Positions 48,649 to 58,522 of a stretch of 64,000 nucleotides of DNA are shown piece after piece; position 1 is the stretch's first letter, and every line of letters starts with the position of its first letter. A program made the translations under genes and the position numbers. The notes under the pieces were generated by a model that did no database searches, had not been told where the DNA came from, and saw nothing but the letters and a program-made list of their open reading frames with translations. The stretch comes from Escherichia phage iGC_PHA_EC001: the sequence record OR437326.1, one strand, 5' to 3'.

Positions 48649-51600
48649 TCAATGACATGTGGCCCAAGAGTTACCCACATCATATCCGGCAGTAAGCTGA
48701 ACGTTAAGATTGTAAAATTCTCCAGCCTTAGTAACAGCTAAAGCAGCAAGTTCTCCTGCCCGACTATAAGCTGTAAACCATCCACCTTTGGGAGATTCAT
48801 GAATGTTAGCCCAAATTTGTCCCGTTTCTTTTTCCTTATTATGCTTCCATTCTTCAACTTTAGCAAGGCATTCTTTATCAATTTTCTTTTGTTCTTCGGG
48901 ATCGTCTACTTTCTTCCAACCTAATGATTCAGGTGAAAACCATTTAAATTCTACAAGGTTACGAGAAACTTCAAGCTGGGCTTCATCGTGATATGCAATC
49001 ATTTGTTGCACGAAATCTTTATTCTTCCAGTCATCTTTAAAGAAGTCAACACTTAGTCCTTCTTCTTCGATCATGTCGTCATAAATAACCATTGCACGTT
49101 TAGCACAGATAACCCCACCACTTTGGAACAGAGAGTTAAGAATCGCGTGAGCAGAACGAGTAGGAACCTTACGACCGTCAATACCCAAAACATATTGTTT
49201 ACCAGTCTTAACCCAAAAATCGTTTAAACGTTCTTTAAGACGCGCCAATGGGAATGCAGCTTCCCAGAAAGCATCAAACACCAATTGACCTGTAAACTTA
49301 TCGCTACCAATTGTTTTAGCAACCTTGTCGGCTTGTGCACCATAGGTAATACCATACTTAACAGATTTAGCAGGACTACGTTCAAATTTACGTCCAATAG
49401 TTTCAGTAATACGTTTTGCCATCATTGTGTGAACATCATTAGGTTTCTCTAACAACAGAGCGTTACAATACTCGTGTGGCTCCGGCTCGTACCGCCAACA
49501 GTTTCCTGTGATGGTAATGCAGTCTTTCTGACGCATGACCCACGTACCAAGTTCTGTTTGTGGACACCAAACATCCTCTACACCCCACTCTTCAATAGTC
49601 AAACTTTGAACAGGAATGTGAGAGCGGTTAGTCAATGTTGCCACTTTTACTTTCTGCTCTTTTGTATTGAAAGCTACAGAGATATTGCCTCCATGCACCA
49701 GGTACGAGGCAGTTAAAGCTGCTTCAAAAAGTTCACCTGGGTTCTGCGCCCAACGCCAAACAGGTTTTTGTTTATGTTCGTGCCAGTAACCATCTGCAAT
49801 CAAGAAACCTTCCAAGAAAGCTACACGCTCGGCATGAGACATATTAACTACACGTTCTACCCACGGAACATCCCATTTACCTTGTTGAACAGAAGTTAAA
49901 CTATTTACCTGATCTTGTTCCATGTTAAATGGAGCATTACAAATAATGTTATCTCCTGTGCAAAGCTCGGCAGTTGTTCTGACTTTAGGCACATAAGTAT
50001 TCCCTTTACTACGGGTATTAACATACCAACGGTGATCTGCTGTTGCACGGTAAGTGTGTGATTTCCCTTTAATCTCAAACGTCTTACTATTTTTATAGAA
50101 GACCTTACCTTTTACTTTAGTCCATTCTTTCAGACCTGTTTCAGCATTGTACCCTAAAATCTCATCCCCTTCCTTCAGGTCGTGATATCCTACCCAACCT
50201 TTACGAGTCAAAGCTTGAGCATCCATCGGCACACAGTAGTGTGATTCAATTTTTGCTTCCAAAGAGTCGAAGTCGTAGCCGATCTGGAAGTATTTAGGAA
50301 CCTCTACACCAAACAAGTTACGCATCTCCCACCCAAACAAAGATGTGACACGAGGAATATTAGCTACAGATCTATGCTTCATACGAGAGGTTGCAGCATC
50401 ACATGTAGCGGCTGGGGTAGGAATACGCCCATCCGCCCTTACTGCGGCTAAGAAACCTTTATCGTATTCTTGATCTTCTTCATCTTCTTCCCAATCAGCA
50501 CCGCCACCTAAAATAGAGTTCCTACGATGCTTATACGTTAAGTATTCTACAATCTGTGTAGCATAAGGAAACTTCTCACTCAAAGCTTGCAGGTTAGGAC
50601 AAATTTCTTTTTCCTGACCTTTGGTAAAACACGGGTTAGTCAATACTTTAAGACCGCGACCTTTACCTTTTGCTATACGCTCTTGAATCTTCCTTTCCAG
50701 GGTTTCCGGTGTGCACTCCAGATGATCACAACGATCCTGACAAAAATTAGAAGATAGAGTTTGCTCAACGTAAGCTCGGATACCTTTCTGAAGTTCTTCC
50801 TCGCTCTTTTTAATCTTGGTGCCAGATTTAAGAGTCAAGTCTTTATCTTTATATTCAGACGGTACCCAACCTAATCCTACAAGCCAGTTTTTAATATGGG
50901 TTGTATCGTTTAATGTTGCAGGAATGTTAGGATCACATAGAGGTTCATCTGCTGCAACTGGCAGTTTCCACTCTTTCCCCAACATAACTAACCACCAATC
51001 GCCATCCCTCTCTTCCAAATGACCATCATGTTTCTTAGCAAAATTGATCATATGGTTAGTTGGCTCTAAGTTCTTTTTAATTTGCAACTTAGGTGGAATA
51101 AAAGCCTTAAGATAACCTTTTGTTGCTGGTTTAGGTGGCAAAATAGGCTCAACGAGTAAACGAAGACGCTCCATTTCTGCATCCAAAAAAGCAAGGTTCT
51201 CTTCTGCTTGTTTCATGTTAAAAGCAAACCCACGGTGTTCCTGGCGTGTAATAATGTCTGCTACACGTTGTTCAAGTTCAAATGGACCTTCCCATTTATC
51301 ATAATCACCCCATTCTTCCATAAGGTAATTATATACACTTGTATTGGCTTTGTTGTCATAGATACAGTAATAAAGCATATCCGCAGCAAAAGTCTTAAAT
51401 CGATCTTCTTCTGGAATCTCTTTACGGAAATCTATTTTTACATCACCACCTGCTTTTCGAGAAAGTGCTGCCAAACTATGTCCTGATTTGCCCTCAATCT
51501 TTCGATCTGGGTTTAACACTTTACTCAAAATCAAGGAGTCAATAAGTTTTACCTTATTTTTGCCCCACGTATTATATTTAACACTGTAATCTAATCCATA

Positions 51601-51981
51601 AAACAGTTTTGTAGCCAACCAGTCGTAGTTGATACCGTTGTGAGCCACAGCCATTTCAACCAGATATTCAGGCTTGTCTTTAAAATAACCTTCATGATTA
51701 ATAAAATCTGGGAAATCTTTTAGTTGAAAATGTGTGTAATCTTGCGCCACATACTCTTTAAGAACATATGTGTATTTACCATCTGACTCTTCATAAGGAC
51801 GCCCATCAAAGATGTATTTAGGGCCATCGTGGAAAGCTACTATTTCTCCTGTTTCATGGTTCTCTAAGACAATACAGTGCATTTGAAATGTGTCTTTGAG
51901 ACGATAAGGACTAGCTAAATAATCAATAGTGTCATTATTCAACAATCCGTTTGCTTCAATATCCCATGTAAACTTACTCAC
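48649..51981 (-). CDS. family A (T7-like) DNA polymerase with 3'-5' exonuclease domain, precursor containing an intein
   Basis: N-terminal DIEANGL (Exo I); motif A DFDSLEAKI; after the insert KSVKYGITYGAQADKVAKTIG (motif B region); C-terminal GIDGRKVPTRSAHAILNSLFQSGG and ...GNSWATCH match T7 gene 5 polymerase pattern; GTG start. Confidence 0.85.
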   Translation of the reverse strand: MSKFTWDIEANGLLNNDTIDYLASPYRLKDTFQMHCIVLENHETGEIVAFHDGPKYIFDGRPYEESDGKYTYVLKEYVAQDYTHFQLKDFPDFINHEGYFKDKPEYLVEMAVAHNGINYDWLATKLFYGLDYSVKYNTWGKNKVKLIDSLILSKVLNPDRKIEGKSGHSLAALSRKAGGDVKIDFRKEIPEEDRFKTFAADMLYYCIYDNKANTSVYNYLMEEWGDYDKWEGPFELEQRVADIITRQEHRGFAFNMKQAEENLAFLDAEMERLRLLVEPILPPKPATKGYLKAFIPPKLQIKKNLEPTNHMINFAKKHDGHLEERDGDWWLVMLGKEWKLPVAADEPLCDPNIPATLNDTTHIKNWLVGLGWVPSEYKDKDLTLKSGTKIKKSEEELQKGIRAYVEQTLSSNFCQDRCDHLECTPETLERKIQERIAKGKGRGLKVLTNPCFTKGQEKEICPNLQALSEKFPYATQIVEYLTYKHRRNSILGGGADWEEDEEDQEYDKGFLAAVRADGRIPTPAATCDAATSRMKHRSVANIPRVTSLFGWEMRNLFGVEVPKYFQIGYDFDSLEAKIESHYCVPMDAQALTRKGWVGYHDLKEGDEILGYNAETGLKEWTKVKGKVFYKNSKTFEIKGKSHTYRATADHRWYVNTRSKGNTYVPKVRTTAELCTGDNIICNAPFNMEQDQVNSLTSVQQGKWDVPWVERVVNMSHAERVAFLEGFLIADGYWHEHKQKPVWRWAQNPGELFEAALTASYLVHGGNISVAFNTKEQKVKVATLTNRSHIPVQSLTIEEWGVEDVWCPQTELGTWVMRQKDCITITGNCWRYEPEPHEYCNALLLEKPNDVHTMMAKRITETIGRKFERSPAKSVKYGITYGAQADKVAKTIGSDKFTGQLVFDAFWEAAFPLARLKERLNDFWVKTGKQYVLGIDGRKVPTRSAHAILNSLFQSGGVICAKRAMVIYDDMIEEEGLSVDFFKDDWKNKDFVQQMIAYHDEAQLEVSRNLVEFKWFSPESLGWKKVDDPEEQKKIDKECLAKVEEWKHNKEKETGQIWANIHESPKGGWFTAYSRAGELAALAVTKAGEFYNLNVQLTAGYDVGNSWATCH
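49501..50235 (-). mobile_element. intein (245 aa) after polymerase motif A, with LAGLIDADG-like motif
   Basis: Begins Cys (CVPMDAQALT), block-B-like TADH, LAGLIDADG-like LEGFLIADGY, ends ...ITITGN followed by Cys +1; excision brings motif A next to the conserved downstream palm sequence. Confidence 0.65.
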
Positions 51982-52775
51982 TATTCCTCCTTTCTAATGT
52001 TCTCCAGAACCCACTGAAGTTCTTTTAAACTTAAACTTCTTACTCCCGCAGTTTTACTAGCTTCAGCTTTAAGTAACGGGTAAGCCTCAATGATACGCGT
52101 TTTAAGATCAGAAGTCAAGGCTTTTAAAAAGTAGGTAGATGCTTCAGATAAAGAATCTTCTTCTGATAACACTTTACCTGCACTTGCTCCCGCTCTCCTA
52201 ACGGCTATATCGTAGTCTTTACTGTTACCTAATACGAACAGTTGATTCTCTCCTAAAACAACGGGAGAACGCTTCTCGTTGCGTTTAATCCATATCTGGA
52301 ATACACAAGGAACATCCCAAGGTTCTCCATGAAGAATAAAAGATCCTTTTGGACATTCTTCTTCGTAAAGAAGATGCATGTGGGGATTTAGTTTGTGTGC
52401 AAAAAAGATTTTTTGAAATGTGCGAGGCAAGATAAAACAAATACCACCTTCGTTATCCAACATTTCAGCACAATGGTTAAAGAACTTAATGGCAAGACTA
52501 GCATTTTTTCCAAACGGAGGATTACCGACAAAAGCAGTTACACTACCAACAGACTCAACAGATTGAGCTAAAAAATCTGCCTCAATACAATCTTCAAACT
52601 TAGGGTCAATATCAAAAGAAGTTATGTTTTTAAAACAAGAAGAGAAAGCCCCTTCTCCCGCAGATGGTTCTACGTAGTTAGCTTCCTCTCCAAAAATTTC
52701 TTTGATCTTATCACATAAGAACCCCGCATAAGCGGGGTTAGTGTAATATTGATCAAGTGTGTTCAACTTGCTCAA
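51981..52775 (-). CDS. N6-adenine DNA methyltransferase (gamma-class-like)
   Basis: SAM-binding EPSAGEGAF followed by catalytic GNPPFG (NPPF); stop overlaps polymerase start codon. Confidence 0.6.
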   Translation of the reverse strand: MSKLNTLDQYYTNPAYAGFLCDKIKEIFGEEANYVEPSAGEGAFSSCFKNITSFDIDPKFEDCIEADFLAQSVESVGSVTAFVGNPPFGKNASLAIKFFNHCAEMLDNEGGICFILPRTFQKIFFAHKLNPHMHLLYEEECPKGSFILHGEPWDVPCVFQIWIKRNEKRSPVVLGENQLFVLGNSKDYDIAVRRAGASAGKVLSEEDSLSEASTYFLKALTSDLKTRIIEAYPLLKAEASKTAGVRSLSLKELQWVLENIRKEE

Positions 52776-52784
52776 TAGTCCTCC

Positions 52785-53216
52785 TTAGTTGTTAGCGAAC
52801 TCAATAGTGAGGTCAACTTTACCATCGTCAGAAATAACCATGTTTTTGGTATTTTTAAAGATGATATCTACTTTACCTTCACTTACACGACAGAATGCAA
52901 CACCATCTGCAACTTTATCGATATAATATTTGTAAGAAAGAATACCCACTTTACTACGACCAGCACCTTTTGTGAAAGAAGGGTTTACATCGAAACGGAA
53001 ACCTTTAGAAGAAACAACACGGTAAGAACGTCCAGTTGGAAGATGTTCAATAACAGAGACATTATTCTCAACAACTTTTACAGCAAACTCTTCAGGATGA
53101 TCCTCAACAATCACATGTGGGATGGCAAATGCCAACGCTTGTTTGTGTTTAATAACACCAGCACCCAGAGCACCAGCAGCTTTAACTTTTGCATTCAGAT
53201 CGATTGTCATACGCAT
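52785..53216 (-). CDS. hypothetical protein (143 aa)
   Basis: ORF track; own promoter and RBS upstream. Confidence 0.4.
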   Translation of the reverse strand: MRMTIDLNAKVKAAGALGAGVIKHKQALAFAIPHVIVEDHPEEFAVKVVENNVSVIEHLPTGRSYRVVSSKGFRFDVNPSFTKGAGRSKVGILSYKYYIDKVADGVAFCRVSEGKVDIIFKNTKNMVISDDGKVDLTIEFANN

Positions 53217-53249
53217 TTTTACTTCTCCTCTTGTTTGGTTGATGAGACA

Positions 53250-53278
53250 AGTATAAGTCCCTTCCGTAAAGTTGTCAA
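53250..53278 (-). promoter_or_regulatory. near-consensus sigma70 promoter on minus strand (TTGACA-N17-TATACT)
   Basis: Reverse complement of 53273-53278 is TTGACA, of 53250-53255 is TATACT; followed by AGGAG and ATG of gene 52785..53216. Confidence 0.5.
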
Positions 53279-53308
53279 CAGGTATTTTTAATAAAAGGGC
53301 CGAAGCCC

Positions 53309-55087
53309 TTAATAGTTGCTATCCGTAGGCAAATTAGCAGGATTGTTGAAATACTGCTCTTTGTCATGCAGAGTTGCAGTTCTAATGTCATAGTAAAACT
53401 GCCCTGCCGGACCAGTTTCCGAGAACTCACGGTTTTTTAGGATAAAGCAATGAGTCGTATTGCGTTCTACAGGGTCTTCAGCGGCTTTATCTCGTTCCAA
53501 AGCTAAGGTAATACCAGCACCTTTAGCCAAGAAACTACTACCCATTGCATCGTCCTCTGTTAAGTGTTCATTGCCACCATTAGCCGATTTCTTAACGTGC
53601 GAGATGACGATAATAGTTATAGCATACTCTTTCATGATGCGCTTCAACCATGTTGCTAACTCTTCCTGGGCTTGAACATCCATACCAGAAAGCAAATCAG
53701 AATAAGGGTCGATAACAAGAATTGTTACTCCAAAATAGATGATCATCTCCAAAACTTTTTCTTTGATAGACTCCACATCTGCTCCACGATCATCACACAC
53801 ATAAAAACGTGGTGATCCATCTTCTCTTTCGTAAAAATCTAGGATTTTTTCTTTATTCTCTTCCAAGATTTGAAATTTCTCTTCCGGTGTTTTCCTGTGT
53901 AGAGGAATATGCAGGAACGAGGACAACAGGTTACGAGAATATTTCTTATAAGTTGCTTCCAAGGACAGAATACCTAGGGTATGTTCTGGGTGCGCAACAA
54001 TAATATGTTTGGTGATCTCGTTCACCATCAAAGTTTTACCGATACTGGTCTTTGCCAGGATGACTGTAATCTCTTCCTCTACTAAACCACCACCCAGCAT
54101 ATTTGCAGCAACACGCATAAAAGGAGGCAAGGTAATCATCTTGGATTCCAAGCATTCTAATGCAGCTTCATACAAGACATTAGAAGCATAAACACCTGCT
54201 GGGGTGTATAGACGAGCACTCCAAAAAGCTTTTACGAAATCTTTTGCACGACCTTCTTCCAGATACTGATTGGCATCCTTAAGATCCATCTGCATACGGT
54301 AGACTTTGTTACGAGGTAGCACCTTAACAATATTTTCAAATGCCTCATTACCTGCTTTGTCATTATCCATGCAAACAATAATCTTCTTAAATTTTTCAAA
54401 GAAAGGATATTGTGCCTGAACTTGTTTATACATACTGGTTTCACCAGTTGTGCCACTAACTACTGCTGGAAGTTCATATTTGTTGTCCAAGTTTTCAGAC
54501 AGCATTTGATAAGCTGCCAGAGCATCGTGTTCACCACCTGTAATTACCACAGTATGAGAACGGTCTGCAAAACGAATTTGTCCAAAAAGATCTACATCTT
54601 TACCTACTTGACCAATAGGTTTACTGAAATCTTTAGGATGAATACGACGCTTAAAACCAACCAATTCTTTACCGATGGTAGTTGGATATAAACAACTTTC
54701 TACTACCATCTGATCCCCTTCCTGACGGTATTCATAACGCACACCATAGAAAGATGAAACTTTTTCTTTAATGCCTCGATAACCACGTGGGTTGGTTGAT
54801 GTTTCTTGAACAATTTTACGATGAATCTGTTTATTAAATTCCGAACCCACAATCTCCTCCTCTTCTTCTAAAACTTCACCATTTTCTCGTAACCATTCTA
54901 CGCTAGGAATAGTGTATTCACACGCAAAGCACTTAGCACCTTTATGCTCTCCATTAGAATCTAATCCATAAACCATCAGGTTATTACGAGAGCGATCCTT
55001 GCCATTTTTCATGCAGCGCGGACAACCTGTATGCCCTTCCTTGCTAAGATCAACATCAAATCCATATTTAGTTATAATGTGCGACAC
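53309..55087 (-). CDS. primase-helicase (T7 gp4-like: zinc-binding domain, TOPRIM primase, DnaB-family helicase)
   Basis: N-terminal CPRC...CFAC zinc motif; TOPRIM acidic motifs (VVITGGEHDA; CMDNDKAGNEA); Walker A AKTSIGKT and Walker B VLVIDPYSD; GTG start with AGGAGA upstream. Confidence 0.8.
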   Translation of the reverse strand: MSHIITKYGFDVDLSKEGHTGCPRCMKNGKDRSRNNLMVYGLDSNGEHKGAKCFACEYTIPSVEWLRENGEVLEEEEEIVGSEFNKQIHRKIVQETSTNPRGYRGIKEKVSSFYGVRYEYRQEGDQMVVESCLYPTTIGKELVGFKRRIHPKDFSKPIGQVGKDVDLFGQIRFADRSHTVVITGGEHDALAAYQMLSENLDNKYELPAVVSGTTGETSMYKQVQAQYPFFEKFKKIIVCMDNDKAGNEAFENIVKVLPRNKVYRMQMDLKDANQYLEEGRAKDFVKAFWSARLYTPAGVYASNVLYEAALECLESKMITLPPFMRVAANMLGGGLVEEEITVILAKTSIGKTLMVNEITKHIIVAHPEHTLGILSLEATYKKYSRNLLSSFLHIPLHRKTPEEKFQILEENKEKILDFYEREDGSPRFYVCDDRGADVESIKEKVLEMIIYFGVTILVIDPYSDLLSGMDVQAQEELATWLKRIMKEYAITIIVISHVKKSANGGNEHLTEDDAMGSSFLAKGAGITLALERDKAAEDPVERNTTHCFILKNREFSETGPAGQFYYDIRTATLHDKEQYFNNPANLPTDSNY

Positions 55088-55099
55088 TTTGTTCTCCTG

Positions 55100-55378
55100 T
55101 TAAAATGGTTCGTTAGTCTCCATCATATATTCTGCTTCTAGTTCTTCCATATGCTTTCTAAATTGGAAAGCAATTTCTGCTACAGTTACATTTAAATCTT
55201 TTTCAAAAACTTCTGTAGAGCCTTCATAAAAACGAATACCGTCAATTAAAAGCCCTCCGTGGTAATCCCAATCACTTTCACGAGAAAGCGGGTTAGGCTC
55301 TTCATAATAGTAATCCACCTCCACAACTAAGGCTTTCCCGTTACGAGTGGTGTATTCAAAATCAAAAGTGTTAATCAT
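55100..55378 (-). CDS. hypothetical acidic protein (92 aa)
   Basis: ORF track; ATGA-type overlap with upstream gene. Confidence 0.4.
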   Translation of the reverse strand: MINTFDFEYTTRNGKALVVEVDYYYEEPNPLSRESDWDYHGGLLIDGIRFYEGSTEVFEKDLNVTVAEIAFQFRKHMEELEAEYMMETNEPF

Positions 55379-56322
55379 TATAGCTCCTCAAATAAAAGTC
55401 TACGACGCTCATTCAACACATCAATGTGATAATGAGTCCTGACATACTTAGCTAATGCTAATCCTTTCTCCATGCAAACATCGGGAGCACTTAATAAGTA
55501 TTCCGTAATATCTTTCCACTCGGAAGGTGTTTCAGCAAAGAATAACAAATCTTTAAACTCTTGTGGATGATAATTCTCACGAGGAGAACAGATCAAAGGT
55601 AAACCCTTAGCACCTGCCTCAAGAATTTTAAGATTGCTTTTTGCATTATTAAACACGTTATCAATCAATGGCGCAAGACTGATTTGATGACCATCGTAAG
55701 ATTCCATGTAGTTGGCATATGGTCTTACACCTTCATAAACACAAGTTGGTGCTACATTTTCTCTGATCACAGACCATTCACGACTACTTAAAACTTCAGA
55801 ATCCCTACGAAAACCACATATTGTAAGATCTTTACCAAAATCGGGCAAGATAGCCAAATCTTGTTTATGTGTTTCACTTCCAGCCCAGACTAATGGAGTT
55901 TTGGAGTAGCGATCACGGGTCAACACAAATTGACCTTCATCGTAAGGAAGTCCATTAGGGATTATGTGCACATTATCATTGTATTGTGAAAGTTCAACTT
56001 GCAAAGCAGGTGTCGTAGTTGTAACAAGATCGCTGTGCTCTAAAAACCATTTTAAATGTTCACGAATACCTGATTCAAAAATACCTTCTAGCATGTGTCC
56101 TTTTGGAATAACTAAAGAGTCATCCAAATCCATAACCATTTTAAAACCTAGGTTTTTAAGGGCTAAAAAGCCCTCTTTACCTTTTGTTGGCACCCCGTTA
56201 AAAACGAAAACGTTGTGTTTAGGTTGTGAAGAGAACTGCCTTGAGTAAGGCAGCACTACCCTATGGAAATCGCAGACACTATAATTGATTCCGTTACGAT
56301 TGTCAAGAATTATTTGTCCCAT
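55378..56322 (-). CDS. glycosyltransferase-like protein (GT-B-like), paralogue of 56330..57277
   Basis: C-terminal NAKSNLKILEAGAKGLPLICS resembles the GT-B nucleotide-sugar-binding motif; clear paralogy with the next gene. Confidence 0.45.
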   Translation of the reverse strand: MGQIILDNRNGINYSVCDFHRVVLPYSRQFSSQPKHNVFVFNGVPTKGKEGFLALKNLGFKMVMDLDDSLVIPKGHMLEGIFESGIREHLKWFLEHSDLVTTTTPALQVELSQYNDNVHIIPNGLPYDEGQFVLTRDRYSKTPLVWAGSETHKQDLAILPDFGKDLTICGFRRDSEVLSSREWSVIRENVAPTCVYEGVRPYANYMESYDGHQISLAPLIDNVFNNAKSNLKILEAGAKGLPLICSPRENYHPQEFKDLLFFAETPSEWKDITEYLLSAPDVCMEKGLALAKYVRTHYHIDVLNERRRLLFEEL

Positions 56323-56329
56323 ACTTCAC

Positions 56330-57277
56330 CTACAAACTTTCAATAACCTGGCGTCGCAACTCGTTTGCATCTGCCAGATTATAATGTGTTCGAACATGTT
56401 CAGCCAAGAACAAGCCACGATCTTCCCGATAGTTTGGATTGCGAAGAAGCTTAACAATTTCGTAATGCCATTCTGCTTTATTCTCTGCGTAAGCAACAGC
56501 GCGAGCATCTACAGGGTTAAAATAAGGTAATACCTTAGAACAAACAATTGGAATACCTTTTGCTCCAGCTTCCAGGATTTTGAGATTACTTTTACAATTA
56601 TTAAAATCGTTATCTACCAAAGGAGCTATAGCAATAGCATGACTTTCGTAAACACTCATGTAATTATCTAAATCTTTTACAGCGGCTTTATATTTGGCAT
56701 TTGGTAAATTTCTGCGAATCTTAATCCACTCTTGTCCCGTGATGCTTTGTGATGCTTCATATCCCGCAATAGTAAGAAGTTCATCATCGAAAGTATTAGA
56801 GACTAATCGTAAATCTGGTTCGTGACTAGCACCGCCAGCCCATACAACAGGGGTACCGGATGAACGATCATTTGACAAAGTGAATTGTCCGCTATCAAAA
56901 GGAAGTGCATTTCGGATCACAACGACATTTCTATTTAAGTGACGGATCTTATATGCCAAATATTCTGTAGTCACAATAACCACATCAGCAAGCTTAACCA
57001 TAGCTACAATAGCATGAGTGTTTGACTCGTATAGACTTGCTAAATAATGCTCTGGATTAAGTTGGTAAAAATCATCTAAATCTACAACAACCTTAACACC
57101 TTGACGTTTCAAAGATAAAACGTATTCTGCACCTTTAGAGTGGATACGGTTAAACACAACAATATCTTTCTTAGGTTGAAAATTATTGTTGTTAAATGGC
57201 ATAACAATACGATGATAGTCACAACCGCTATGAGGTTTTGCATCAATTTTTAGTTTAGACCATTTTTTATTTGACAT
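56330..57277 (-). CDS. glycosyltransferase-like protein (GT-B-like), paralogue of 55378..56322
   Basis: Shares blocks VWAGG..H..DL, NCKSNLKILEAGAKGIPIVCS, HVRTHYN with the neighbour; start trimmed to ATG 57277 which has AGGAGG 9 nt upstream. Confidence 0.45.
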   Translation of the reverse strand: MSNKKWSKLKIDAKPHSGCDYHRIVMPFNNNNFQPKKDIVVFNRIHSKGAEYVLSLKRQGVKVVVDLDDFYQLNPEHYLASLYESNTHAIVAMVKLADVVIVTTEYLAYKIRHLNRNVVVIRNALPFDSGQFTLSNDRSSGTPVVWAGGASHEPDLRLVSNTFDDELLTIAGYEASQSITGQEWIKIRRNLPNAKYKAAVKDLDNYMSVYESHAIAIAPLVDNDFNNCKSNLKILEAGAKGIPIVCSKVLPYFNPVDARAVAYAENKAEWHYEIVKLLRNPNYREDRGLFLAEHVRTHYNLADANELRRQVIESL

Positions 57278-57950
57278 GTGCCAGTGCCTCCTCATAGGAA
57301 ATTCGGATTTTCCCATTTTTAATATCCTCTAAAGATGCTTTATATTCTTCCCAGTTAATCCCGATAGCAGCTTCTTTCTCTTCTTTTGTCAGATTAGCAA
57401 AAGGCATAGGGTTGTTTCCAAAAACATCGTCTGGGTGGATATAAGCCATGATACGAAGTGGACAAGGTGTTGCCTGAATACCATGATTCAAACCAGCAGC
57501 TTGCAAACGGTGTCCCCATTCAGCATCTTCAAAACCATAGCCGTGAGTGTAAGGACGGAAATAACCCATCTTCTCAACAACGGCACGAGAATACATTGCA
57601 AATTGACACATTGCAAGTTCCCAGAGAATAACTTCTCCTTTGCTTCCAACAACTTTATCTTTGAAATACTCCGGCATACCAAAGAAATCCCATCCTCCAG
57701 AGACAGCTTGATCTACAAAGTATGTTTCCCATCCCTCCATGACTGGGTAGCAATCGTCGTCAAAAATAAACCAATAATCATAACCTTCTTCATAAAACTG
57801 GTGCATAAGTTCATTCCTGGCATAAGCTACACCTTTACGATCTGGATCGTTGAATACTCGAAAATCTGCACGTGGATCTGTTACAAGGTAGTCTTTAAGT
57901 GGACGGACACCTACAGTGATAACACCCACTCCAATTTTAATATTTTCCAT
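57267..57950 (-). CDS. glycosyltransferase-like protein (GT-A fold, DxD type)
   Basis: DxD-type motif in YDYWFIFDDDCYP and downstream YGFEDAEWGHRL typical of GT-A enzymes. Confidence 0.45.
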   Translation of the reverse strand: MENIKIGVGVITVGVRPLKDYLVTDPRADFRVFNDPDRKGVAYARNELMHQFYEEGYDYWFIFDDDCYPVMEGWETYFVDQAVSGGWDFFGMPEYFKDKVVGSKGEVILWELAMCQFAMYSRAVVEKMGYFRPYTHGYGFEDAEWGHRLQAAGLNHGIQATPCPLRIMAYIHPDDVFGNNPMPFANLTKEEKEAAIGINWEEYKASLEDIKNGKIRISYEEALAHVK

Positions 57951-57958
57951 TTTCTCTC

Positions 57959-58522
57959 CTAAATAGTTTTACTGTGATCATGACAGTGTAATAAATGATG
58001 TATAGACCGTTGAGGATTTGTTTGACCTAATCTGTAAATGTGAAACAGATACATTCCCCGCATCAATCCTAACCTCTTTCCTTTTTCATGTAAAGTGCGA
58101 GAGAAAATTAAGTCGAATTGGATAGATTTTTCTTCGAAAGGAATTTCATTCCACAATGATTTTCTAAAAAGCAAGAAGAAACCTGCCAGAGGTGTTCCGA
58201 AAGGAACTTCTTCAACACTCACTTTATGATATTCTCTTGCAATCTTAGCATATTCTATATGGTTTAGAATATCTGGATCATCATTAATTTGGTTAGAGAA
58301 AAGCTGATAACCACTGCCTAACCTGTTACAAGTTGCACCTATTACATCAAAAGGCGGGTTTGACATAACAAGCTCTTCAAGCATAGATGGTTGATCAGGT
58401 AGGAGGAACATTGTATCGGTATCTCTTAAACACACCCAACTATCATCTGGAAGAACGGCAATGGCTTCATTGATAGCCTTGCCGATATTTCCTGTCAGAT
58501 AGGGAGTAATATAATAAATCAT
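57959..58522 (-). CDS. possible glycosyltransferase-like protein (187 aa)
   Basis: DxD-like CLRDTDTMF; weaker than neighbours. Confidence 0.3.
   Translation of the reverse strand: MIYYITPYLTGNIGKAINEAIAVLPDDSWVCLRDTDTMFLLPDQPSMLEELVMSNPPFDVIGATCNRLGSGYQLFSNQINDDPDILNHIEYAKIAREYHKVSVEEVPFGTPLAGFFLLFRKSLWNEIPFEEKSIQFDLIFSRTLHEKGKRLGLMRGMYLFHIYRLGQTNPQRSIHHLLHCHDHSKTI

Follow-up and report, generated by a model that had tools for sequence, protein, structure and literature searches.

Orphan methyltransferases are a textbook means by which phages counter restriction. The Dam enzyme, which is specific for GATC, belongs to the alpha class: its recognition domain lies between motifs I and IV, and its catalytic tetrapeptide is DPPY. 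The M.TaqI, M.BseCI, CamA and HsdM proteins have the gamma order of motifs, with a class I Rossmann fold, an NPPF or NPPY tetrapeptide and a C-terminal recognition domain. The NPPF tetrapeptide is typical of RNA m6A enzymes too; METTL5, for example, acts on rRNA together with TRMT112. Solitary DNA methyltransferases in lytic phages are presumed to be protective against restriction (PMC8594841).

Here we analyse a gene of this kind in a stretch of 64,000 nucleotides (the window) from sequence record OR437326.1, Escherichia phage iGC_PHA_EC001. By sequence comparison, the source of the window is a phAPEC8-like E. coli myophage of the genus Phapecoctavirus (Stephanstirmvirinae). At least 20 phage records, phAPEC8 and tuntematon among them, match bases 51000-54000 with 99.1-99.4% identity, and 25 records have at least 99% identity over this segment. 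The methyltransferase reading frame found there (Table 1) has 2464 homologs at E ≤ 1e-3, and genes 99% identical to it in phAPEC8 and tuntematon carry the label 'putative DNA N6-adenine methyltransferase', which is also present in the records of dozens of relatives. Judged by these homologs and by the identity to annotated phage genes, the frame is a real gene; it is already annotated as a methyltransferase in public phage genomes and is a routine gene of phAPEC8-like phages. One record bears the label 'DarB-like anti-restriction', which we take as a domain-level resemblance only. The TTG start is supported because the N-terminus, MSK..LDQYYT, aligns with that of the homologs. A first-pass annotation had given the range as 51979-52775 without stating the strand; the open reading frame itself is confirmed at 51981-52775 on the minus strand, and the extra bases are those of the polymerase start codon. 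The family is kept across many large phages. For example, the homolog of rV5 is 54% identical to the window protein, the rV5-like phages of the BASEL collection also carry a homolog of 54% identity, and that of Klebsiella phage 05F01, from the same subfamily, is 58% identical.

Table 1. Features of the methyltransferase locus. Positions are those of the window; conservation values are for the 116 aligned homologs.
Feature	Position	Strand	Basis and remarks
Methyltransferase gene, 264 aa, TTG start, TAG stop	51981..52775	-	ORF list and sequence
Shine-Dalgarno of the methyltransferase, AAGGAGG	52780..52786	-	Sequence; 4 nt before TTG; overlaps TAA stop of upstream ORF
Motif X, D8-Q-Y-Y-T12, N-terminal cofactor/target-pocket motif	52740..52754	-	D8 97%, T12 100%
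Motif I, E36-PSAGEGAF-44, SAM-binding loop	52644..52670	-	E36, P37, G40, G42 100%; F44 99%
Motif IV, N85-P-P-F88, catalytic amino-methyltransferase tetrapeptide	52512..52523	-	N85, P86, P87 100%; F88 99%
C-terminal domain of ~100 aa, residues ~165-264, presumed target-recognition domain	51981..52282	-	Separate beta/helical module in AF2 model
TAGTG stop/start overlap, methyltransferase/DNA polymerase	51979..51983	-	Read from sequence
Shine-Dalgarno of the polymerase, AAGGAGG	51986..51992	-	Within last methyltransferase codons; 4 nt before GTG
Family A DNA polymerase, 1110 aa, GTG start, downstream gene	48649..51981	-	Pfam DNA_pol_A
ORF143, 143 aa, function unassigned, first operon gene upstream of methyltransferase	52785..53216	-	PHROG 9938 (unknown function)
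Sigma-70-like promoter candidate, TTGACA-17-TATACT	53250..53278	-	11/12; best consensus match within 48-56 kb

To describe the protein we built an alignment of 116 members of its family, which come from phages, from metagenomes and from the genomes of prokaryotes. The core residues of motifs I, II and IV are 99-100% conserved; D55 represents motif II, and F68, conserved in 97%, represents motif III. The tetrapeptide of motif IV is encoded by AAT CCT CCG TTT and stands in the wider context GNPPFG (residues 84-89). The motifs run in the order X-I-II-III-IV and are followed by the C-terminal module, which is the gamma-class order, and together with the conservation this order supports the prediction that the protein is a gamma-class methyltransferase of the N6-adenine type (NPPF). 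The first-pass call of an N6-adenine methyltransferase is thus borne out by the motif order, the tetrapeptide and catalytic residues that are 97-100% conserved, with DNA as the likely substrate. The C-terminal domain has a pI of 8.2, as against 4.8 for the catalytic part, and contains the residues R169, R194, G196, G200, G244, S247 and E252, which are conserved family-wide. We infer a role in DNA recognition for this domain.

The AF2 model of the protein is confident (pLDDT 94.2, pTM 0.89). Foldseek comparison with the PDB gives M.BseCI, CamA, type I M subunits (StySJI M) and M.TaqI as the best matches, with E values from 4e-8 to 1e-6 and TMq of 0.42-0.56; the matches span chiefly the Rossmann core, and RNA methyltransferases appear in the same list a small margin behind the DNA enzymes. 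Among family models, the PADLOC MTase_II models PDLC03255 (E 1.3e-36) and PDLC03256 (E 3.9e-28) match near full length. PHROG 799, 'DNA methyltransferase', matches at 1e-10, the best PHROG being one of 'unknown function'. In Pfam the sole match is Eco57I at 15.6 bits, below the cutoff of 25.3, so the similarity to gamma-class Type II enzymes lies below Pfam thresholds, and a search of NCBIfam with the methyltransferase gave no match. For some homologs there is a precomputed Pfam match to PF26055, which our own Pfam search did not reproduce; we found no paper mentioning PF26055 and have given the match no weight.

The genomic setting of the prokaryotic relatives is informative about what the family does. 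We scanned the neighbourhoods of bacterial and archaeal homologs of 33-43% identity, taking one genome per species, which gave 79 loci; the 66 in which our own ORF calling gave both a clean ORF for the methyltransferase and a neighbour downstream of it were retained. A same-strand ORF starts between -89 and +25 nt from the methyltransferase stop in 29 of these 66 loci. Specifically, the downstream neighbour matches the PADLOC REase_II model PDLC03460 in 17 loci (best E 3e-17), R.PabI in one (Pfam PF09522, 8e-16, above cutoff; also PDLC03538) and PDLC03550 in one, while a further four loci have in common an unrelated downstream partner of ~350 aa without matches. The partner genes that were inspected individually lie on the same strand as the methyltransferase gene and usually overlap it by 4-20 nt.

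The commonest partner, a family of ~215 aa that we call REa, has invariant D41 and K57 and a nearly invariant S55. With I56 these residues form a D-x13-S-I-K pattern; a conserved E15 stands ahead of it, and the pattern resembles a PD-(D/E)xK-type site. An AF2 model of the protein (pLDDT 91) had no significant match in the PDB (best E 1.6e-3, TM 0.12; BglI at rank 36). We describe the family as restriction-enzyme-like on the strength of the PADLOC model name, the operon position and the motif. A profile search with it collects 482 proteins, and the named ones among the best 120 are all 'hypothetical protein'. In the tree of the family, methyltransferases partnered by REa are spread over at least three deep branches, and the window protein groups with sequences from phages and metagenomes. 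Neighbourhoods and tree together fit a Type II restriction-modification (R-M) family from which solitary copies have been taken by phages, and would be hard to square with RNA as the substrate. Searching the window by tblastn with the partner nuclease families gave nothing below E 0.1 (all E > 0.1), and in the phage collection REa is present in 28 cyanophage and marine records only and in 0 Escherichia phage records. In this phage group the methyltransferase is therefore an orphan as to the commonest partner family, in agreement with the earlier statement that no restriction endonuclease partner is visible.

The same neighbourhoods bear on the choice between DNA and RNA as the substrate. In sequence-profile comparison the nearest solved structures are Ta1320 (E 1.3e-4) and METTL5 (E 1.6e-3), with M.TaqI behind at 0.4. 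The phage protein shares with these COG2263 proteins NPPFG and a motif X of the form Q-Y-x-T-x-P (LEQYPT.P..A; in the shared pattern, LxQYxTxP...A), JGI names several homologs 'predicted RNA methylase', and there is a nearby nucleotidyltransferase gene, with a tRNA nucleotidyltransferase note in tuntematon. All of this would suit an N6-amino methyltransferase of the METTL5/COG2263 kind that modifies RNA (or protein), with host rRNA or the tRNA of phage or host rather than DNA as its target, but we consider such an enzyme very unlikely here. The profile match to Ta1320 and METTL5 is limited to residues ~4-127 and leaves the C-terminal 100 aa unmatched: those proteins are single-domain chains of ~200 aa, which leave uncovered the conserved basic domain of ~100 aa that the phage family has in addition. 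Moreover, the top fold matches are DNA methyltransferases, the PADLOC models that match near full length at E 1e-36 are models of Type II DNA methyltransferases, and the phage gene is located inside the replication module. Finally, bacterial members of the family, unlike METTL5 and Ta1320, have restriction-enzyme-like partners. In 19 of the 66 prokaryotic loci the gene directly downstream of the homolog is Type II restriction-enzyme-like, and DNA is therefore favoured over RNA. The more specific proposal that a phage METTL5-like RNA m6A methyltransferase acts on host rRNA or tRNA, its likeness to R-M enzymes reflecting shared ancestry and not substrate, strikes us as most improbable. The substrate is thus most likely DNA, and the product probably m6A.

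It is probable, in our judgement, that the gene encodes an orphan gamma-class N6-adenine DNA methyltransferase which lacks a cognate nuclease, acts on phage DNA in a motif-specific manner and confers a narrow anti-restriction benefit. Anti-restriction is the simplest explanation because the bacterial relatives are classical R-M pairs; both the motif specificity and the protective role are inferences. How broad the protection could be is constrained by related phages. Cleavage by EcoRI and by EcoRV is blocked by adenine methylation in their sites. Exceptional sensitivity to EcoRI, to EcoRV and to systems of types I and III is reported for the rV5-like phages (PMC8594841). Since these relatives, so restriction-sensitive in the laboratory, carry a homolog of the gene, protection is narrow at most: the anti-restriction function suggested in the first-pass annotation is plausible, but not as broad cover. 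For the same reason a non-specific or very low-specificity adenine methyltransferase, giving broad cover against restriction, is barely credible. Such an enzyme would be compatible with a recognition domain of ~100 aa, very small by the standards of Type II enzymes, and with conserved residues that are unchanged whichever nuclease family is the partner. It would not be expected to leave a genus with a 54%-identical homolog exceptionally sensitive to EcoRI and EcoRV, nor does the window show any depletion of GAATTC (15 sites) or GATATC (27 sites), both of which occur at expected numbers.

A regulatory or self-marking function of the DNA adenine methyltransferase, in replication timing, packaging, expression or the discrimination of phage from host DNA rather than in defence against restriction, has more to be said for it. 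In Phapecoctavirus the gene overlaps the polymerase gene and is probably co-transcribed with it, in rV5 its neighbours are genes of DNA metabolism, many large phages have kept the family, and the rV5-like relatives are without visible protection from the six R-M systems tested. The genome also already avoids restriction sites strongly: CTGCAG, CAGCTG, GGATCC and CCATGG are absent from the window (0 observed for 13.2, 10.3, 9.2 and 8.4 expected, respectively), and of the 4-mer palindromes GTAC is depleted most, with an observed/expected ratio of 0.35. Still, no methylation-dependent nuclease, packaging partner or regulatory partner was identified, the position of the gene varies among related genera, and the bacterial relatives are classical R-M pairs, so we regard a regulatory function as unlikely.

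We also considered which motif the favoured motif-specific DNA methyltransferase might recognize. Pfam and NCBIfam held nothing usable for a prediction, and the names in the sequence clusters are only 'hypothetical' or 'putative N6-adenine methyltransferase'. The R.PabI site, GTAC, was tried as a candidate and rejected: the R.PabI-like pairing is found in only one of the 66 loci, and a protected GTAC is unlikely because no other 4-mer palindrome is avoided as strongly in the window. In the literature we found neither methylome nor restriction-digest data for phAPEC8-, rV5- or phi92-like phages, and neither methylome nor enzymology for any member of the methyltransferase family.

The overlap of the methyltransferase stop with the polymerase start, which had been taken to couple the translation of the two genes, is read directly in the sequence. 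The TAG occupies 51983-51981 and the polymerase GTG 51981-51979, base 51981 being common to both, and the same two CDS appear in the GenBank entries for phAPEC8 and tuntematon, likewise overlapping by 1 nt. The polymerase itself is 99% identical to that of tuntematon outside a 245-aa insertion. Obligate coupling is not implied, because the polymerase has a strong Shine-Dalgarno sequence of its own. Moreover, the 1-nt overlap is generic operon packing. In a survey based on simple longest-ORF gene calls, 30 of the 75 same-strand junctions in the window overlap; the overlap is exactly 1 nt long in nine of them and 4 nt long in six, so that 15 of the 75 are of one or the other kind. Nor is the overlap present in two of the relatives. 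Klebsiella phage 05F01 keeps the order primase/helicase, small ORF, methyltransferase, polymerase, but with a 35-nt spacer containing its own AGGAGG between the last two genes; in rV5 the methyltransferase is not beside the polymerase at all, its neighbours being nuclease, thymidylate synthase and ribonucleotide reductase genes. The position of the methyltransferase thus differs among related genera. What stands of the coupling claim is the overlap itself, which may permit some re-initiation at the polymerase.

At the level of transcription the two genes are likely to be joined with ORF143, whose position is conserved in phAPEC8, tuntematon and Klebsiella phage 05F01 and for which a Pfam search gave no match. 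The promoter-like site upstream of ORF143 is at the position matching a 'putative host dependent promoter' annotated in phAPEC8, and no terminator-like sites were found between it and the polymerase. A unit running from ORF143 through the methyltransferase to the polymerase is therefore likely, with the putative promoter probably driving all three genes.

The suggestion that the methyltransferase may cooperate with a block of glycosyltransferases found no such footing. Four glycosyltransferase-like genes lie at 55378-58522. Between them and the methyltransferase stand the primase/helicase gene and the strong promoter-like site, both downstream of the four genes, which therefore belong to another transcription unit. 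No shared operon, co-variation or literature support was found that would connect them with the methyltransferase. Sugar modification of DNA in such phages appears only as speculation in published comments (PMC7552041, PMC8594841).

The favoured reading can be put as a sequence of events. The methyltransferase would share a transcript with replication genes, one that starts from the promoter-like site (53278-53250) and passes through ORF143 and the methyltransferase to the polymerase, and the enzyme would methylate adenines within a short sequence motif on the replicating phage DNA. Recognition of the motif would fall to its compact, basic C-terminal domain, the methyl donor SAM would be held by the EPSAGEGAF loop and D55, and the target adenine would be flipped into the NPPF pocket, as is usual for the gamma class. 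Progeny DNA would in this way be narrowly shielded from the Type II restriction enzymes with which the methyltransferase family is paired in bacteria.

Beyond the single locus the value of these results is modest. Pfam and NCBIfam both miss the family of ~260 aa, whose members often bear the name 'hypothetical protein' or 'predicted RNA methylase', and the bacterial neighbourhoods provide a reasoned basis for labelling it a DNA methyltransferase. Its commonest bacterial partner is an unstudied nuclease-like family of ~215 aa. Knowing the recognition motif that the two share would indicate from which restriction systems these widely used therapeutic-candidate phages are shielded.

Set against the described systems, the phage protein is like M.TaqI, M.BseCI, CamA and HsdM in its gamma motif order, Rossmann fold, tetrapeptide and C-terminal recognition domain, but with 264 aa it is much smaller than these enzymes (390-580 aa), and its C-terminal domain of ~100 aa aligns to none of theirs. 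It does not have the alpha-class arrangement of Dam, as only 40 residues separate motifs I and IV and the tetrapeptide is NPPF. It is of the same family as the methyltransferases in the uncharacterised pairs of a ~260-aa methyltransferase and a ~215-aa nuclease in Alphaproteobacteria, Poseidonibacter and others (PDLC03255/03256 with PDLC03460), to which it is 33-43% identical over the full length and which have the same conserved catalytic and C-terminal residues. Unlike them, the phage copy is without a nuclease partner, and in this it resembles T4 Dam and the methyltransferases of the Drexlerviridae, each a solitary enzyme in a lytic phage with a presumed role in protection against restriction.

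The DNA polymerase of the window phage carries an in-frame insertion of 245 aa that begins with a cysteine (C583, followed by VPMDAQ) and ends in ITITGN, immediately before Cys828 in polymerase numbering. The polymerase sequences flanking the insertion are 99% identical between the window and the close relative tuntematon. The ends and the flanks together make up the signature of a putative intein. The penultimate position is occupied by Gly, where a usual intein has His, and a search of the insertion against the Pfam Hint/intein models gave no match at E ≤ 0.001. The DNA of the insertion was found in 33 phage records, and both phAPEC8 and tuntematon are without it.

Features discussed in the text, with their locations
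Feature	Record or locus	Coordinates (nt)	Strand	Remarks
In-frame polymerase insertion, 245 aa	Window	49501-50235	-	From comparison with the tuntematon polymerase (865 aa); within gene 48649-51981
143-aa ORF, PHROG 9938	Window	52785-53216	-	Leads the methyltransferase-polymerase operon
Glycosyltransferase-like genes (n = 4)	Window	55378-58522	-	Block
REa genes	L035; L016	5782-6435; 5690-6289		Also at 15 further loci in bacteria; aligned in A2 and A4
REa homolog	L094, Synechococcus phage S-SM1	2992-3591		Plus 27 other cyanophage/marine records
Phage genes in a bacterial bin	L014, contig JAEZZU010000159.1			MAG 'Proteobacteria bacterium OH_PFB_59'; binned as bacterial

In bacterial loci a methyltransferase homolog lies immediately upstream of the gene for REa, a putative restriction nuclease. 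REa is an uncharacterised family of ∼215 aa with the conserved motifs HGKxFE, FD...SIK and LNPKIDSKxQRRLQCS. It is matched by the PADLOC model REase_II PDLC03460; neither Pfam nor NCBIfam gave a match, and a fold search of the PDB with a confident AF2 model returned nothing significant. We also observe an REa homolog (∼31–33% identity) standing alone in T4-like cyanophages: in S-SM1 it is adjoined by a helicase gene, and no methyltransferase is annotated beside it.

Across the whole window (1-64000), comparison of observed with expected counts shows that palindromes are strongly avoided. GTAC occurs 72 times where 206 are expected (O/E 0.35), the ratio is near 0.5 for GGCC and CCGG, and CTGCAG, CAGCTG, GGATCC and CCATGG are all absent against expectations of 8–13. 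No avoidance was seen for GATC, AGCT, TGCA, GAATTC or GATATC. Within the glycosyltransferase-like block, two of the four genes have GT-B Pfam matches that are only sub- or near-threshold, and one gene has a weak match, under the cutoff, to a TET-associated glycosyltransferase (PF20691, E 1e-3). The sugars may be added either to DNA or to a glycan of the surface or virion.

The 143-aa ORF upstream of the methyltransferase, for which Pfam gave no match, is kept in the same place in phAPEC8, tuntematon and Klebsiella phage 05F01. The L014 contig holds this ORF together with the window phage's primase/helicase and methyltransferase, at 99% identity, and is phage sequence within a bacterial genome bin. 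Separately, an rV5-type methyltransferase homolog, ∼54% identical to the query, also occurs in several records labelled 'Campylobacter phage', which resemble the rV5-like phages of E. coli in that both carry this type of homolog.
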